Origin: Thermoproteus sp.
GTDB lineage: Archaea; Thermoproteota; Thermoprotei; Thermoproteales; Thermoproteaceae
NCBI GenBank assembly: GCA_049976425.1
Contig: JBMFIG010000021.1
Coordinates: 1 to 23,613 of the forward strand
Length of the DNA stretch: 23,613 bases
Direction: 5' to 3'
Positions 4,746 through 11,116 of this stretch are shown piece by piece. Position 1 is the stretch's first letter. Every line of letters begins with the position of its first letter. The notes beneath the pieces were generated by a model. The model was not told the DNA's origin and ran no database searches. It was given only the letters and a program-made list of their open reading frames with translations. Made by a program: the position numbers and the translations under genes.

Positions 4746-6589
4746 TTACAGGAGGTACTGGAACTCCTCGAGGCCCAGCCTCTTCAAAGTATCGTATGTG
4801 GGCTTTCCGTCGACCCAGCCCCTGAGCTTGTAGTATATCTTAATCCCCTCGTCGAACATCTTGGCCGAGGAATGGCCCTTGGCGGGGCCCGTGGGTATGG
4901 GGTTCCTGAAGTGCGGGTTCAGCTCGTCCTTGATCCACTTGCCCTCCTTCACGTGGAACAGCCTCTCCACGTTGAAGATCCTCTCGCCTATGGCCAACAT
5001 ATCCTCCGGCGTGACGTCCCAGTCGTAGGCCAGGTTGAAGAGGTGCGCTAGGTCCTTCTCGAATATGCCCTCGTGGTCTAGCGTGGCGAACTTGCAGTAG
5101 GTCACCGAGTCGGTGAGGGCCATCAAGTGCTGGGCGTATATAACGATCCTGGCCTGCTTCTCTATACACTCGGGGGTCTCGCAGAGCGGGTCCACCTTCT
5201 CGGGGACGCCGAGGACCTCCCAGGTCGGGGAGTAGGCCTCCAGGTGGTCGCCTCCTCTATTGGCGGTGAAGTACGAGAGCGAGAAGCCCTTGAGGGATCT
5301 CGGGTCGTAGGCCGGAAGCCCCTGCCCTCTGGAGCCCTTGAAGGCGCTGGGATCGCCGTACTTCAGCGCCAGCCTGTAGTCCCCCTCTGCCAGATCGTCG
5401 CCTATATCGCTCCTGTTGGCCGTCCTTATGACTAGGTCGACCAACGCGCCCGCGTCTCCCCAATCCACGTCGAGCTTCAGCTTCCCCTTCTTGGCCAGCT
5501 CCACGGCGGCGGCCAAGGTGTTGCCCAGCGAGATTGTGTCGAACCCAAGCTCGTTGGCCAGCTTCTGCAGGCGTAGGTCGGCCTCGGGGTCGAACAAGCC
5601 TATGTTGGCGCCGAAGCTCCAGGTGTTCTCGTACTCGTACTTAGCCTTGCCGACGAACTTGTAGGGGCCGGACTTGACCATGACGTGTTGCGTGCAGGCG
5701 ATGGGGCACATCATGCAGGCGTGGGTCTCCACGACGTAGTTCTTCTTTATGTATTCGCCGGTCAGCTTGTCGGCCTCCTCGGCGTAGCCCGTCTCGAAGT
5801 TCCTCACGGGGTAGGCCCCTATCGAGTTTATCACCGCCGTCAGTAGGTTAGTGCCGTATATGTGGAGGGCCTTCGCCGTGGGGCCCGACATGAGGCGCTG
5901 GGCGAGCTTGGTGGACTCCGCTATGAACTTGGCGCGGTCCTTGACGTCCTTAAGCAAGTCGCGCGTGCCCCAGACAAGTATGCCCTTGAGCTTCTTCGAG
6001 CCCATGACGGCGCCGACCCCGCCGCGCCCGGCGAAGCGCTCGTAGTCGGACATCCTGATGCCCGCTATCTTCGACAAGTTCTCCCCGGCGGGGCCCACCA
6101 CGGCGACGCCGGCCGCCTTCTCCTCCTCGGGGAACCCGTTCTCCCTCAACATGGCCTTTATCGCCGCGCCGGTCCATTTGCCCCAGAGGTGCTTCGCCGG
6201 CTTTATGGCCACGTCGCCGTCCTTGACCACCACGTAGACGGGGTCCTCGGCCGCGCCCTCTATGACGAGGCCGTCGTAGCCAGACTTCCTCAGCCAGTAG
6301 GCGAAGTTCCCGCCCGCGTTGGAGTGGGTTATGGAGCCCGTGAGGGGCGACTTGGTGACGACCGTGACGCGGCTGGTGGAGAGGTTCGCCATCGCCGACA
6401 GAGGCCCGGCGAATATGTACAGCCTGTTGCTGGGCGACAGGGGATCTATCCCCTGGGTATTTCCTTGAGGGCCAGGTAGGAGCCCAAGCCTCTGCCGCCC
6501 AGGAACTTCTTCAGGAGATCGTCCTTGAACACCTCCTCGGTCACCTTCTCTGCCTTGAGATCTATTCTAGCTATTCTGAATATCGCCAT
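4746..6589 (-). pseudogene. aor: Tungsten-dependent aldehyde:ferredoxin oxidoreductase (AOR family), interrupted by a 1-nt frameshift near 6450 (possibly a sequencing error)
   Basis: ATG 6589 gives MAIFRIARIDL...KFLGGRGLG..LALKEIPRG followed by TAG (6446-6448). The other frame continues IDPLSPSNRLYIFAGPLS into ORF 4746..6392, which has KSPLTG, GRGG.GAVMGSKKLK, C..CPIAC, EYE, G.DTIS and YDPR motifs. Confidence 0.85.
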
Positions 6590-6639: not shown

Positions 6640-6924
6640 TTATCCCCCGAACGGGGACACTATGAGGATCGAGTCGCCGTCCTTGAGGCGTGTCCTCAAG
6701 CCGTCCAGGAAATCTATGGATCTGCCGTTTACTAATATATCATGCATCTCTATTACTTTTCCATTTCTAATAATTTTATTCTTAAAGCCGGGATAAATTC
6801 TATTTAGTATATTCACGACATCCTCTACGACGGAGCCGTCCTCTAGGTTTAGATCAAGCGAGATCTGGTCGACCGAATCTAGGCCGAAGTACAGCGGCGC
6901 CATGATCCTCACCTTGACCCGCAT
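6640..6924 (-). CDS. MoaD/ThiS/SAMP ubiquitin-like protein (free C-terminal GG)
   Basis: ILVNGR.I..LDGL.TRLKDGD.I.IVSPFGG followed by stop. Confidence 0.85.
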   Translation of the reverse strand: MRVKVRIMAPLYFGLDSVDQISLDLNLEDGSVVEDVVNILNRIYPGFKNKIIRNGKVIEMHDILVNGRSIDFLDGLRTRLKDGDSILIVSPFGG

Positions 6925-6991
6925 AGAGGTTGCCGGGCGCCTCCTAAAATACGATAGAGGGCTTCTTAAAAAGGGCCGTCCCTACGGCCCT

Positions 6992-7981
6992 ATGGTGAGG
7001 GTGTTCAAGCAGGGTCGCGCCGAGCTGTTGAGGGGCAAGACGGTGGCCGTGATCGGCTACGGCAACGTGGGGAGGTCCATCGCTCTGAACCTCAGAGACT
7101 CGGGCCTCTCTGTCCTAGTGGGCGATCTGCTCGGCAACGAGTACGCGAGGAGGGCCAAGGCCGACGGGCTGGAGCCGAGGCCTATACCCGAGGCCGCCGA
7201 GCTGGGCGACGTCGTTGTGCTGGCGCTTCCCGACGACGCGGCCCCCGAGATCTACAGGACCGAGGTCCTGCCCGGCCTCCACTCGGGCAAAGCCCTCGTG
7301 TTGACCAGCGGCTTTCCAGCCGCCTACGGCCTGTTGCAACTGCCGGGCGGCGTCGACGTGGCGCTTTTCGTGCCCAAGGCGCCCGGCCCCGCGATTAGGG
7401 ACAGATATCTGCAAGGCAGAGGGTACGCGGCAGTCGTCGGCGTGGTCGAGGACGTCTCGGGGAGCGCGCTCGACGTAGCTCTGGCCGTGGCAGACGGCGC
7501 CGGCGCGTTCAAGCAAGGCGGCTTCGCCGTGGAGGCCTCGGCGAGGGAGGAGGCGTTGGCGGATCTCCTGGGCGAGCAGATACTCAAGGCGTCTCTGCTG
7601 GCCGCTATAGAGGTCGCCTTCGAGCTCATGACGAAGGCCGGCGTGCCGCAGGAGCTGGCCGCGGTCGAGCTCTACGGCTCCGGCGAGCTGGGCGAGCTGG
7701 GGAGGCTCATGTCGCTCGTGGGGCCCTACGGCGCTCTGCGCCTCCAATCGCCCGTGGACGCGTACGGCCAGCTGGCGAGGGCGGGCGCCTACAGGAAAGC
7801 CATAGCGCGGGTGGCCGCCAGAGTCCTCGAGGAGATCCTCGGCGGCGACTTCCCGAGGGAGATCTACCTGGAGAGGGCCGCCGGCTACGTGAAGTTCAAC
7901 GCCTTGTGGAGGTCCGCAACCGCCAGCGAACTGGCCCAGGCGGACGCGCGGCTGAGGGCCGCCTTGCGTCAAGGGCCGTAG
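6992..7981 (+). CDS. ilvC: Ketol-acid reductoisomerase family protein (divergent)
   Basis: Motifs L.GKTVAVIGYG..G...ALNLRDSG, PD, PK.PG and DL.GEQ. Start placed at ATG 6992, after the TTAAAA box at about 6966, which removes the overlap with the MoaD gene. Confidence 0.75.
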   Translation: MVRVFKQGRAELLRGKTVAVIGYGNVGRSIALNLRDSGLSVLVGDLLGNEYARRAKADGLEPRPIPEAAELGDVVVLALPDDAAPEIYRTEVLPGLHSGKALVLTSGFPAAYGLLQLPGGVDVALFVPKAPGPAIRDRYLQGRGYAAVVGVVEDVSGSALDVALAVADGAGAFKQGGFAVEASAREEALADLLGEQILKASLLAAIEVAFELMTKAGVPQELAAVELYGSGELGELGRLMSLVGPYGALRLQSPVDAYGQLARAGAYRKAIARVAARVLEEILGGDFPREIYLERAAGYVKFNALWRSATASELAQADARLRAALRQGP

Positions 7982-8343
7982 TAGAAACAGGGGGTCGATA
8001 GGCCCCCCTCGCAGACCTCGACCCAAGTGGCGCCGAGGTGTCTAGCTATATATCTAGCCAGACACTCGCCGGTGACCCCGCCGGGCCCGCACGGTATTTC
8101 GTAGTAGGGCTCCGGGGCCTCCCCCTCGCGGCTGGACTTGAGGTATTTGCCGTCCATCTCGGCGAGTAGCGACCAGAGCCTGCGCTGGAGCTCGTCGGCG
8201 TCCACGACGTAGTCCACGTCGTCGGGGCCGCAGACGGCCGCCCTGATCACGTAGTCGTGTCCGTGGAGCGTGCCCTTGAGGGCGGAGAACGAGGGCTTGT
8301 GGGCCACCGAGATGGATCCCCGGGCCACGACGCAGAGACGCAC
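7969..8343 (-). CDS. queD: 6-carboxytetrahydropterin synthase / PTPS family (COG0720)
   Basis: AH...LHGHDY zinc motif, V.D, and T.E.LA.YI; 124 aa, consistent with a T-fold protein. Confidence 0.8.
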   Translation of the reverse strand: MRLCVVARGSISVAHKPSFSALKGTLHGHDYVIRAAVCGPDDVDYVVDADELQRRLWSLLAEMDGKYLKSSREGEAPEPYYEIPCGPGGVTGECLARYIARHLGATWVEVCEGGLSTPCFYYGP

Positions 8344-8362
8344 GGCGGCTCGCCGCCCCCTC

Positions 8363-8377
8363 TATAAATATTTTAAA
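8363..8377. promoter_or_regulatory. Bidirectional TATA region shared by queD and the QNG1-like gene
   Basis: TATAAATATTTTAAA is the only AT island in the 52-bp gap between divergent GTG starts at 8343 and 8396. Confidence 0.65.
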
Positions 8378-8395
8378 GACGTCCGCCGCACGGCC

Positions 8396-9292
8396 GTGGA
8401 CGTTGTCGTGGATGTAGACAAGGCGCGGGCGGTGGCCGAGATAGTGGGGAGGCTCGGCTTGAGGAGGGACACCTACGACGACGGGCGCCTATACCCCCCT
8501 AGATCCGATCCCCGGGAGGATCAGCTGGCGTTCTTCACAGCGATGGTGGCGGTCGACCACAGGACCTCCACGCCGCTGGGGCCCTTCGAGGGGTATATAG
8601 ACGGCGAGTTCTACCACGGGGCCGACGCGTTGTGGCGGCTCGGCAGGAAGGCCTACGACGAGGGCCTATTCAAGGCCGAGAGGCTGGCCGAGCTGACCCC
8701 TAAGGAGGCCGAACGCCTCTTCTCGATAGGGGATCTCAAGGTCTGGGACTTCCACGTCAGGCTGTTCCTACTGCGGGATCTCGGCAAGAAGGCCCTACGC
8801 GCAGGGGGGTTCGAGGCGTTGATACCGGACGCCGTGTCCGAGATGGTGGAGAGGCTGAGGCGGATCAGAGCGTACGAGGACCCCGTGAGGAAGAAGGCGC
8901 TGTTGTTGGCCAAGTTCCTGGACGGACGCGGCTTGGTAAAGTTCAAGGACCCCGAGAACTTCGACGTGCCGGTCGACAACCACCTATCCAGGATAGCCTA
9001 CAGGCTGGGCATAGCCGACGTCGACTACCGCCAGCTCTTCGAGGGGCTGGAGCTGAGCCGCGAGGAGGACGCCGAGGTGCGGCAGAAGGTGAAGCTCGCG
9101 TGGAGGCTGGTGGCCAAATTCTCGGGCGTCGACCCGTTCACCCTAGACGACTTCTTGTGGTCTTTCGGGAGGCGCGTATGCACTAGAGAGGCGCCGAGGT
9201 GCGGCCAGTGCCCCTTTAGGTCGGTCTGCAAGGCCGACGGCCTCGGCCAGTACCCGCCGGAGCACTCCCACCAGCTGACCTGGTATTATTAA
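8396..9292 (+). CDS. QNG1/DUF2419 (queuosine salvage)-like HhH-fold N-glycosylase with EndoIII-type [4Fe-4S] motif
   Basis: Motifs LAELT..E...LF, R..LLRDLG, KKALLL, FKD..NFDVPVDNH...RLG, E..EVR, LDDFLW..G, C-X6-C-X2-C-X5-C and C-terminal H..LTWYY. GTG 8396 preferred as start. Confidence 0.65.
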   Translation: MDVVVDVDKARAVAEIVGRLGLRRDTYDDGRLYPPRSDPREDQLAFFTAMVAVDHRTSTPLGPFEGYIDGEFYHGADALWRLGRKAYDEGLFKAERLAELTPKEAERLFSIGDLKVWDFHVRLFLLRDLGKKALRAGGFEALIPDAVSEMVERLRRIRAYEDPVRKKALLLAKFLDGRGLVKFKDPENFDVPVDNHLSRIAYRLGIADVDYRQLFEGLELSREEDAEVRQKVKLAWRLVAKFSGVDPFTLDDFLWSFGRRVCTREAPRCGQCPFRSVCKADGLGQYPPEHSHQLTWYY

Positions 9293-9309
9293 ACACCCCC
9301 ATTTCCCTC

Positions 9310-10263
9310 ATGGAGATCAGAGCAGTCGCCTTGAACGTGAAGTGGGGCTTCGACCCCGAGAGGATTTCGCGGTTCTTAGAGGCGGCCAAGAAGTTGCGTC
9401 CGCTGACCGTGAGGGTTTCCGTGACCACCCCGCCGAGGGAGGGCGTCAGGCAGACGTTGAAGGCGTTGGAGGAGCTGGGCGTGGAGTACGCGGCGATAGG
9501 CATCTACGAGGGCGACGATCTGGAGGAGCTCGTGAGGACCTACGGCGTCTTCGCCGCCGTGGGCTCCGTAGACAGATACCTCGAGTTCTTGAGGAGGGTG
9601 GAGAGGCGCGGCGAGCCCCATCTGGCCAAAAACGTGGCGCTCTTGCTGGGGGGCGTAGTCTACGATTCGCCCTACTACCCCGCTACTGCGGTGAAGAACG
9701 AGGGCGTCGCGCTGTCGCTCCTCTACCCCGACGATCTGGAATCCCTCGACGACGTTGCGGCCGTCTTGGGCTCGGCAGAGAGGTTGGGGGAGGCCTTCGC
9801 GTCGTCCATAGGCGAGCGCTTCCTCGGCGTAGACGGGAGCCTATCCCCCTGGGGCGAGAGATCCGTGGCGAGGGCGATCGAGCGCCTGTTCGGCGTGAGG
9901 GTCGGCGCGTGGGGCACGCACTCGGCCATCAGAGCCTTGAACGAGGCCATCTGGTCCTCCGGCGCCCGCCTAGTGGGCTTCAGCGAGGTCATGTTGCCGC
10001 TGGCGGAGGACGAGGAGCTGAAGAGGCTGGTCGAGGGAGGGGCCCTAGACCTCCAGAAGCTCGTGTCCTACACCTCGACGTGCGTCGCGGGCCTCGACAT
10101 GGTCCCGATAGAAGCCGACGAGAAGGCCTTGAGGAGGATGTTGCTCGATCTGGAGGCCATAGCGAAGTCCAAGGGGAGGGCCGTCGGCGTGAGGGTCTTC
10201 CCGGCCTCCGGCCAGTACTTCGACGTGCCGGGCTTCGGCAAGACGCCCGTCCTGAGGCCTTGA
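9310..10263 (+). CDS. DUF711/UPF0210 family protein
   Basis: Motifs SPYYP, GVDGSLSP, G.WGT..A...LN, VGFS.VMLP..ED..L and C..GLDMVP. Confidence 0.75.
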   Translation: MEIRAVALNVKWGFDPERISRFLEAAKKLRPLTVRVSVTTPPREGVRQTLKALEELGVEYAAIGIYEGDDLEELVRTYGVFAAVGSVDRYLEFLRRVERRGEPHLAKNVALLLGGVVYDSPYYPATAVKNEGVALSLLYPDDLESLDDVAAVLGSAERLGEAFASSIGERFLGVDGSLSPWGERSVARAIERLFGVRVGAWGTHSAIRALNEAIWSSGARLVGFSEVMLPLAEDEELKRLVEGGALDLQKLVSYTSTCVAGLDMVPIEADEKALRRMLLDLEAIAKSKGRAVGVRVFPASGQYFDVPGFGKTPVLRP

Positions 10264-10264
10264 C

Positions 10265-11116
10265 ATGCCGTGGCTCACTAGGCCTATCGAGTACGTCCCC
10301 CGCCGCGTCGTGTCCCTCAACCCGTCCATAACCGAGTTCCTCTTCGTCGCCGGCCTCGGAGACAGGCTGATCGGGAGGGACGTGTTCTCCTACAGGCCGC
10401 GGGACGCCCTCAAGATACCTCATGTGGGGTCCTTCACCTCGGCCGACCTAGGCGCGGTCGAGGGGGTCAAGCCGGATCTGGTTATAGTGTACTACCCGGT
10501 GCAGAAGGACCTCGTGGAGGTTCTCGACAGAATAGCCCCCGTCGCAGTTGTCGAGACGCCTACGAGCATCGACGACGTGTTGGGCAACTTCAAGTTCGTG
10601 TCCAGGCTCCTCGACGCCGACGAGGCGGGGGAGCACGTGTCGGGCATATACAGGGATCTGCTCAAAGGCGCGCCGCTCGTGGAGGACGCCTTGGCGGTCT
10701 TCTACCTGGGGGGCTACGACGTGGCCTGCGCCGAGTCCTTCACCGCCGCGGCCCTCGACGCCGTTGGCATAAGGTACAGCAGGAGGATCCACTGCGTCTA
10801 CCACTTCCTGGGGCCTCTGGAGAAGGCCGTGGAGCTGGTGGAGAGAGTCGACCCGGCCCTCGTGCTCTACGAGGGCAAGACGAGGCAGCCGAGGCCCGAG
10901 GAAACCGCCTGGATCAGACGCGCCAGGTGTAGGGCTTGCTCTAGGGGCGAGGTGGTGGCGGTCCCCAACGACACGTTGGCGCACTACGGGCCGAGCCTCC
11001 CGCTGGACCTCGCGCTGGTCAGAGACGCCGTGGCCTCGCGGGCCCCGCTGGTCGCCGGCACTTCCAGCGTGTCGAGGCCCGCCCTAGGCGATCCCTGGTA
11101 CCGGCCGTACCTCTGA
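10265..11116 (+). CDS. Class III (BtuF/FhuD-like) substrate-binding fold protein, no signal peptide
   Basis: Motifs PRRVVSL.PS.TE.LF..G.GDRL.G, KPDLVI and C-terminal H.GP. Confidence 0.7.
   Translation: MPWLTRPIEYVPRRVVSLNPSITEFLFVAGLGDRLIGRDVFSYRPRDALKIPHVGSFTSADLGAVEGVKPDLVIVYYPVQKDLVEVLDRIAPVAVVETPTSIDDVLGNFKFVSRLLDADEAGEHVSGIYRDLLKGAPLVEDALAVFYLGGYDVACAESFTAAALDAVGIRYSRRIHCVYHFLGPLEKAVELVERVDPALVLYEGKTRQPRPEETAWIRRARCRACSRGEVVAVPNDTLAHYGPSLPLDLALVRDAVASRAPLVAGTSSVSRPALGDPWYRPYL

Follow-up and report, generated by a model that had tools for sequence, protein, structure and literature searches.

An archaeal Qng1-like protein with a predicted iron-sulfur loop beside a QueD-family gene: a candidate 7-deazaguanine nucleotide hydrolase

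What does a relative of Qng1, known from eukaryotes and a few bacteria as a queuosine-5'-monophosphate N-glycosylase, do in a heat-loving archaeon? The question is raised by a 23,613-nucleotide stretch of Thermoproteus sp. (contig JBMFIG010000021.1 of assembly GCA_049976425.1), hereafter the window, which is one contig (C21) of a 1.84-Mb genome that is 99.4% complete. In it, a gene for a predicted N-glycosylase of 298 residues (aa) is paired with a gene of the PTPS/QueD family, and archaea are described as having archaeosine instead of queuosine (PMC5485725). According to its predicted structure, the 298-aa protein is of the Qng1/DUF2419 fold and not of the Nth/AGOG type, and its sequence points to a Qng1-type glycosylase that combines a predicted iron-sulfur (Fe-S) loop with a different pocket. 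We tentatively favor the hypothesis that it hydrolyzes archaeosine or preQ0 mononucleotides for recycling of the base, which would make this archaeal relative of Qng1 a concrete candidate for the recovery of preQ0 from tRNA turnover.

Fold, catalytic residues and cysteine loop

The assignment to Qng1 draws on both structure and sequence profiles. An AlphaFold2 model computed with alignment A1, a set of 38 sequences on which all residues called invariant here are based, has a pLDDT of 95.7 and a pTM of 0.93. In a Foldseek comparison with the PDB, the ten best matches of this model are all Qng1/DUF2419 chains (entries 7u5a, 7ulc, 7u07, 7ugk, 7u1o, 7u91, and 7uk3; TM-score 0.73-0.79, E 3e-10 to 2.5e-9), and EndoIII, MutY, and AGOG rank below them (TM-score 0.47-0.57, E at least 8e-6; 0.57 for Pa-AGOG, 1xqo). 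The initial annotation had predicted a Qng1/DUF2419-like protein with an Fe-S motif and had proposed a comparison with Qng1 and EndoIII structures; Qng1 comes first, the best match is not to Nth, MIG, or AGOG, and the four cysteines of the motif are conserved in every sequence of the alignment. The 298-aa protein shares with Qng1 (DUF2419, PF10343; 7uk3, 7ulc, 7ugk) the two-lobe helix-hairpin-helix (HhH) fold, the beta-hairpin, and the C-terminal tail, and in the model, residues 65-74 form a beta-hairpin and residues 211-215 a short helix, in the places of beta2-beta3 and alpha12 of Qng1. Sequence identity between the two is about 20%. The A1 profile, searched against 177,635 PDB sequences, finds Qng1 of Sphaerobacter thermophilus (StQng1) with an E value of 1e-6 and 273 of 313 positions covered, and it aligns KKALLL with KRAQIL, VPVDNH with FADY, EDAEVR with EEVEIR, and LDDFLW with VDWLLW, which bears out the order of QNG1 motifs that had been read from the sequence. 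Given the E values of the profile match and of the Foldseek matches, this likeness is more than chance.

The residues with which Qng1 binds and cleaves its substrate have counterparts in the archaeal protein (Table 1). In Qng1, the HhH-motif lysine K199 orients the ribose, I203 and W302 stack on the base, D298 reads the deazaguanine by hydrogen bonding, D231 is the nucleophile, K233 and Q306 contact the phosphate, and Y323 places its terminal carboxylate on the ribose 3'-OH and is itself anchored by E267 (PMC9881137). The A1 profile alignment puts D225 of the 298-aa protein on E267 and R259 on Q306, both of them invariant. Thus, the Lys/Asp catalytic pair, the aliphatic/Trp sandwich, the deazaguanine Asp, the acidic residue that anchors the tyrosine, and the terminal Tyr are all retained. 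Qng1, which is described as metal-independent, loses its activity when tagged at the C-terminus, and its tail blocks the DNA cleft (PMC9881137). All 120 close homologs (those listed among the 364 word-indexed homologs of the family) end in Tyr, 117 of them in T[WY][WY]Y, and a terminal Tyr is also present in 116 of 146 remote representatives. The full set of invariant positions comprises D54-H55-R56, G75, D77, D118, R122, D128, K132, D162-P163, K166-K167, L170-L171, D194-N195-H196, R203, G205, D225, R229, D251-D252, W255, R259, C262, C269, C272, C278, T295, and Y298.

The pocket that accommodates the queuine side chain appears different. The cyclopentenediol pocket of Qng1 is formed by W48, Y93, W94, W299, P46, and H53 (PMC9881137), and its aromatic part is lost: Y93, W94, and W299 correspond to A76, D77, and D252, the last two of which are invariant. 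Furthermore, D54-H55-R56 stands where Qng1 has N-F-C in the A1 profile alignment, and Y232 and K233 of Qng1 are replaced by N195 and H196. Because the residues of the queuine pocket are replaced, a substrate other than queuosine is predicted. In a second alignment (A2), the remote homologs keep the four cysteines and the terminal Tyr, and some of them carry I-D-Y-H, C-H-Q-T, and G-W-D-Y motifs that are nearer to those of Qng1. Given this variety of motifs, the family seems to comprise relatives of Qng1 that bear an Fe-S loop and differ in their pockets.

Its relation to Qng1 can also be traced in the homologs. The closest homologs, by their names, are from Thermoproteus/Pyrobaculum. A library of 50% representatives contains 436 homologs with E<=0.001, and for 211 of these E is 1e-10 or lower. 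The PF10343 (Q_salvage) flag is precomputed for 11 of the 120 listed homologs, and when ten flagged homologs are scanned again, eight reach at least 25 bits, two of them over nearly the full model (positions 4-271 and 7-278 of 285). Some homologs that share about 45% identity with the 298-aa protein exceed the cut-off. Among ten remote representatives, five are above it, two are just under it, and three give no signal.

The archaeal protein also differs from Qng1 by an insertion of about 22 residues between the base-binding helix (W255) and the C-terminal tail. This insertion holds a Cx6Cx2Cx5C motif that Qng1 does not have and whose cysteines are at least 90% conserved across 18 remote homologs. 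The cysteine segment matches EndoIII, MutY, and ROS1 in PDB sequence searches, and the protein has in common with these enzymes the spacing of the cysteines, the preceding GR-x2-C, and the V/I-D-x-H motif of the catalytic Asp. In EndoIII, the Gly-rich HhH hairpin reads LPGVG; the 298-aa protein lacks such a hairpin and reads Y-E-D-P-V, it has no PF00730 domain, and its N-lobe extras and tail are of the Qng1 type. AGOG (PF09171; 1xqo), which is likewise an HhH glycosylase that recognizes a guanine-type base, is matched only locally and to our knowledge has no Fe-S loop. The Fe-S loop probably has a structural role or adds a contact to phosphate or nucleic acid. The family looks intermediate between Fe-S DNA glycosylases and the nucleotide-specific Qng1, and it bears on how a fold used in DNA repair came to serve salvage, or how a salvage fold came to serve repair.

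Table 1. Positions of the features discussed, in the window or, where a handle is given, in another locus of the genome
Feature	Position	Strand	Details
Non-canonical PTPS/QueD-family (T-fold) gene	7969-8343	-	124 aa, GTG start
Divergent intergenic region, A/T island in middle	8344-8395	.	52 bp, direct sequence reading
Fe-S-bearing Qng1/DUF2419-like N-glycosylase gene (predicted)	8396-9292	+	298 aa plus stop, GTG start
K166-K167	8891-8896	+	K166 on StQng1 HhH-motif Lys K199; invariant 38/38
L170	8903-8905	+	on StQng1 I203; invariant 38/38
V-D194-N-H	8972-8983	+	D194 on catalytic Asp D231 (StQng1) and EndoIII catalytic Asp; H196 on K233
D251-D252-F-L-W255	9146-9160	+	D251 on D298, W255 on W302; D252 replaces W299
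C262-x6-C269-x2-C272-x5-C278, EndoIII/MutY-type [4Fe-4S] loop motif (predicted)	9179-9229	+	invariant 38/38
T-W-Y-Y298 C-terminus	9278-9289	+	Y298 matched in role to Qng1 terminal Y323
DUF711 gene	9310-10263	+	317 aa; PF05167 107.6 bits, C-terminal part only matched
GAT-QueC fusion gene	L003:745-2235	+	496 aa; QueC domain 146.9 vs 150.3 bits
QueF-like gene	L081:1405-1737	+	110 aa

The QueD-family neighbor and preQ0 synthesis in the host

The initial annotation had two genes diverging from a 52-bp gap with a single AT island, and the open reading frames (ORFs) and the sequence agree with this. The island, TATAAATATTTTAAA at 8363-8377, lies amid GC-rich DNA at 19-33 bp upstream of either start codon, and the sequence makes it likely that the gap holds a TATA region common to two leaderless archaeal genes. 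An alternative frame of 340 aa for the glycosylase, beginning at 8270, would run into the PTPS neighbor; we prefer the 298-aa start because this is where the homologs begin. The same divergent pair is found at 16 Thermoproteaceae loci, with gaps of 33-65 bp (113 bp in one) that mostly contain an A/T-rich stretch. An Rfam scan of 7700-9600, a region that includes the gap, gives no match to an RNA element at E<=1.

The neighbor had been labeled queD, a name that holds at the level of the family and not at the level of the signature. The protein belongs to the PTPS family (PF01242, 34.5 bits; cut-off, 22.4), and its score against the QueD equivalog TIGR03367 is below the cut-off (25.3 vs 89.25 bits). 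The described signatures are CxxxHGH for QueD, CxxxxxHGH for PTPS-II, and ExxHGH for PTPS-III (PMC5041015); the neighbor, which reads KGTLHGH, fits none of them. It also has MDGKYL instead of LDH(x)L, that is, D-G where canonical QueD has the D-H of its Asp-His dyad. In an alignment of the window copy, 12 further Thermoproteaceae copies, and seven canonical QueD proteins of the phylum, the cysteine of CxxxHGH is absent from all 13 Thermoproteaceae copies and present in all seven canonical ones, and the Thermoproteaceae type carries six conserved cysteines elsewhere. Thus, the T-fold, the His triad, and a conserved Glu are common to QueD (PTPS-I) and the neighbor, and the signature Cys and the dyad His are not. 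H14, H27, and H29, which align with the histidines of canonical QueD, are presumably the Zn ligands. Three observations argue that this protein does the job of QueD: It is the only PTPS match in the genome, and this type is the sole COG0720 member in genomes that encode QueC and, in most cases, QueE; in a genome of a sister genus (G322), a PTPS gene of this type lies directly next to QueE; and in genome G262, where this type is missing, a canonical QueD is encoded elsewhere (TIGR03367, 91.7 vs 89.25 bits). The neighbor would then be a non-canonical QueD, one that lacks the textbook catalytic Cys and His.

Whether this QueD would serve de novo synthesis in the host is another matter. The genome has one arcTGT, a GAT-QueC fusion, and a QueF-like gene. 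These last two are archaeosine-synthase types for which an inverse distribution is described (PMC5485725), and the host carries them together. QueE was not found in the host genome with TIGR03365, with TIGR03963, or by tblastn with five archaeal QueE sequences, three of which come from the genus of the host; NCBIfam models do not identify the best candidate, an ORF on contig C29, as QueE. Neither was it found in the closest relatives, G123 (a genome in one contig with an identical PTPS) and G214, although it is present in 19 of 22 other Thermoproteaceae genomes searched. For these counts we set our own threshold, a match at about 1e-17 or better that starts at model position 1-3, because generic radical-SAM genes match the model as well, with E values from 1e-9 to 1e-13. 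The host species may lack the capacity for de novo synthesis of preQ0, and co-regulation of the glycosylase with de novo synthesis, as originally suggested, is doubtful in this species because no QueE is detectable. In a related genome (G099), an inversion of the PTPS gene has produced the order PTPS, glycosylase, DUF711, and QueE lies two genes past DUF711. In the same genome QueE is directly preceded by a purine-nucleoside/MTA phosphorylase-like gene (L092:2624-4128, + strand; identified from its N-terminal sequence only), and both lie less than 3 kb from the glycosylase-DUF711 pair.

Possible substrates and their genomic context

The Qng1 fold, the retained catalytic and base-binding residues, and the terminal Tyr lead us to favor a Qng1-like enzyme that acts on a guanine-like, 7-substituted mononucleotide. 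We propose that the substrate would be a free 7-deazaguanine ribonucleotide from tRNA turnover, most likely archaeosine 5'-monophosphate (or a preQ0 nucleotide), and not duplex DNA. By analogy with Qng1, D194 would attack or stabilize C1', K166 and the carboxylate of Y298 would hold the ribose, L170 and W255 would sandwich the base, the guanine-like edge of which would be read by D251, and H196 and R259 would contact the 5'-phosphate. The cationic amidine at C7 of archaeosine could be bound by D77 and D252, both of which are invariant. The released archaeosine base (G+) would then decay to preQ0, which arcTGT would return to tRNA. The free G+ base is described as deaminating spontaneously to preQ0 (PMC5485725, PMC5699537), and where PMC5699537 takes up recycling from tRNA degradation, it suggests such a route and names no enzyme. 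That the 298-aa protein is the missing enzyme of this archaeal archaeosine-recycling route is possible and, in our estimate, rather doubtful. In our literature search, in which subscription journals were poorly covered, neither an Fe-S homolog of Qng1 nor an archaeosine-nucleotide hydrolase was described.

The QueD-like gene is the only pathway-specific linkage of the glycosylase. Among the first 30 loci inspected, the PTPS gene adjoins the glycosylase at 17 of 18 Thermoproteaceae loci and at 0 of 12 loci in other families, and the adjacency persists through the inversion in G099. In Thermoproteaceae, the glycosylase and the non-canonical QueD would thus share one short bidirectional promoter region, which suggests that recycling and precursor supply are brought together at one locus. 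A search for expression data yielded two DNA metagenome runs of one study and no RNA data. The conserved synteny with que genes that had been put forward as a check is therefore seen within this family and is not found beyond it: In 40 loci of other families, tblastn finds no QueD, QueC, or QueF-L within 6 kb. The search of these 40 loci gives a single TGT gene, located beside a remote homolog, and one radical-SAM match, which is weak. Outside Thermoproteaceae, coordinates were obtained for the PTPS genes of 18 genomes, and each of these genes is either separated from the glycosylase by 52 kb or more or located on a different contig. Five genomes of genus g5 lie outside this set of coordinates, and one of them, G107 (L038), is among the 40 loci.

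The distribution of the family is patchy. In a scan of 401 genomes, all from the phylum of the window, the glycosylase is found in 98. These include 20 of 22 Thermoproteaceae genomes (family f1) and nearly all genomes of five other families (f2, 12/12; f14, 15/16; f23, 12/12; f28, 5/5; f25, 4/4), and none from three families (f3, 0/13; f12, 0/56; f19, 0/32). By name, homologs also occur outside the scan, in Korarchaeota, Culexarchaeum, and Verstraetearchaeota. TGT is encoded in 360 of the 401 genomes; within the six families to which most carriers of the glycosylase belong, 70 of 71 genomes have it. PTPS is found in 167 genomes, with two of 16 in f14 and one of 12 in f23, so that these two families together have the glycosylase in 27 of 28 genomes and PTPS in three of 28. 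If the recycling hypothesis is correct, then these two hyperthermophile families, which have arcTGT and no recognizable QueD or QueE, and the QueE-less host would maintain archaeosine largely by recycling and scavenging. We considered whether salvage replaces synthesis, in which case glycosylase and preQ0 synthesis genes would be inversely distributed. All four combinations of the two occur among the 401 genomes, and thus there is no clear correlation either way.

A number of observations weigh against the hydrolysis of 7-deazaguanine mononucleotides. First, canonical arcTGT is described as not accepting the G+ base (PMC5485725), and thus the recycling loop depends on decay of the base to preQ0. 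Second, the glycosylase was not found in 303 of the 401 genomes, including the TGT-positive, PTPS-less lineages f3 and f26, nor was it found in G139 and G195, two genomes that keep TGT and QueE. Both of these genomes also lack PTPS, and as the two genes are adjacent, their joint absence could go back to one loss of both or to a gap in the assembly. Third, the lack of que genes near the glycosylase outside Thermoproteaceae, noted above, counts on the same side, as does the fact that our mapping of the N-lobe pocket follows an alignment of low identity (about 20%). Fourth, the models and sequences that match the 298-aa protein itself are in part those of DNA glycosylases. The only Pfam model that it matches above cut-off is AGOG (PF09171, 27.9 vs 26.1 bits), and it has no match at E<=1 to PF10343, for which the gathering score is 25 bits. 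A PDB sequence search with the protein alone gives ROS1 as the top match (E 2.5e-5, residues 181-279), followed by EndoIII and MutY over the cysteine loop, and the best PDB match of the A1 profile is again ROS1 (E 3.6e-7, C-terminal two thirds). Additionally, the Cx6Cx2Cx5C loop, V-D-N-H, and FGRxxC are features of DNA glycosylases, and the cluster loop of EndoIII and MutY contacts DNA. Finally, the gene for PBP2 (PolB1-binding protein 2, a subunit of DNA polymerase B1) is near the glycosylase in nine of 39 loci from three families, and several remote homologs (P0141, P0160, P0167-P0169, P0172, P0177, P0185, and P0222; 680-839 aa) are fusions in which the Qng1-like domain is C-terminal to a domain of 380-500 aa with weak MEDS, DUF7504, or KaiC/RAD55-like signals. 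A PDB sequence search with the fused forms gives no match, and the KaiC/RAD55-like signal, with protein atlas scores of 0.76-0.87, is a lead only. One further homolog, P0244 (618 aa), has a weak phage-integrase match in place of the KaiC/MEDS-like domain.

These last points would fit a glycosylase for DNA (or polymeric RNA) in base-excision repair or in the surveillance of DNA modification. In such an enzyme, the Fe-S loop would grip the backbone and D194, with K166, would remove a guanine-like base that is damaged or modified, such as a lesion or a 7-deazaguanine carried by foreign DNA. AGOG as the sole family over cut-off, the match of the C-terminal third with its cluster loop to ROS1, EndoIII, and MutY, the proximity of PBP2 outside Thermoproteaceae, and, as a lead, the fusion to a weakly KaiC/RecA-like domain all fit this possibility. 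Furthermore, K166 is at the position of the lyase lysine of EndoIII on our reading of the motif alignment, and public names in the family are "N-glycosylase/DNA lyase" or "iron-sulfur cluster loop", both of which would be wrong if the enzyme acts on mononucleotides. Nevertheless, we consider a DNA glycosylase unlikely, if well worth keeping in view. The structural matches to DNA glycosylases are clearly poorer than those to Qng1. AGOG is aligned only over residues 184-265 (model positions 163-237 of 248), and the A1 profile matches EndoIII over just the 27-34 residues of the cysteine loop. PF00730 (HhH-GPD) gives no match, and the NCBIfam scores are far below threshold (nth, 12 vs 211.7 bits; mutY, 23 vs 286.5; the AGOG equivalog NF009787, 14.1 vs 383). 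An acidic Y-E-D-P-V takes the place of the Gly-rich hairpin, and the terminal Tyr and the modeled hairpin at 65-74 correspond to elements of Qng1 that block the DNA cleft. Moreover, the host genome already has, at other loci, an AGOG of the canonical type (266 bits) and one HhH-GPD gene that resembles EndoIII. A TIM-barrel gene that follows the glycosylase in five of 39 loci scores above the Pfam cut-off for AP_endonuc_2, which could suggest an operon of endonuclease IV and base-excision repair; with 20-25 bits against about 130 in NCBIfam, it is no real endonuclease IV, and its best match, below threshold, is CbiR-like.

Another possibility, to which we assign a similarly small chance, is that the protein is a Qng1-like mononucleotide N-glycosidase with a substrate other than 7-deazaguanine. 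It would act on some other modified or damaged guanine-type nucleotide, such as a cationic N7-substituted or oxidized GMP or dGMP, and would clean the nucleotide pool before replication. The fold, the catalytic residues, the Asp for the guanine edge, and the terminal Tyr fit such an enzyme equally well, the Q-specific pocket is not conserved, the linkage to que genes is confined to one family, and the distribution does not track the presence or absence of preQ0 synthesis. PBP2 would be a fitting neighbor, as would an adenine-phosphoribosyltransferase-like gene that lies one to four genes from the glycosylase in four of 39 loci. We give more weight to hydrolysis of archaeosine or preQ0 nucleotides since the QueD-like gene is linked in 17 of 18 loci and through an inversion, the residues that hold the deazaguanine core in Qng1 are all retained, and no particular alternative substrate is positively indicated. 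A non-enzymatic redox or ligand-sensing Fe-S protein, for instance a 7-deazaguanine-binding regulator of the neighboring gene, would account for the Fe-S motif and for a promoter region common with the PTPS gene, and it is very improbable given that K166, D194, and the terminal Tyr are invariant in 38 homologs and largely kept in remote ones and that Pfam and NCBIfam scans find no DNA-binding regulator domain.

Neighboring genes

The counts of neighbors given above refer to 39 of the 40 loci from other families, as the ORF caller missed the glycosylase in L055. In family f14 (six genera), the PBP2 gene is downstream of the glycosylase and co-directional with it (for example, L048:6974-7333 and L049:6959-7321, both on the + strand), and L056, L058, and L067, which come from two families other than f14, likewise have PBP2 close to the glycosylase. 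An eRF1/Pelota-like gene is near the glycosylase in five of the 39 loci.

In the window, the flanks are unrelated housekeeping genes, namely those for ketol-acid reductoisomerase, a ThiS-like protein, DUF711, a Peripla_BP_2 protein, and UDP-glucose dehydrogenase. The DUF711 gene begins 17 bp downstream of the glycosylase and is co-directional with it, and it is followed after 1 bp by the Peripla_BP_2 (BtuF-like) gene (region 9310-11116). DUF711 is downstream of the glycosylase at 16 of 18 Thermoproteaceae loci and at one locus in family f2, and ECOD assigns it to the group of the ten-stranded barrel found in ribonucleotide reductase and PFL (PMC4390871). If the recycling hypothesis is correct, then the PTPS without Cys and His and DUF711 could both join the module, for example in handling the released base.

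The match of the aldehyde:ferredoxin oxidoreductase ORF (4746-6392, - strand, 548 aa) to AFOR_N begins only at model position 68 of 199, and hence this gene may be shortened at its N-terminus or may have its real start upstream of the called ORF. The ThiS-like ORF (6640-6924, - strand) and the ketol-acid reductoisomerase ORF (6902-7981, + strand) of the window overlap head-to-head by 23 bp as called. At the Pyrobaculum loci, the ThiS-like gene adjoins the PTPS gene directly.

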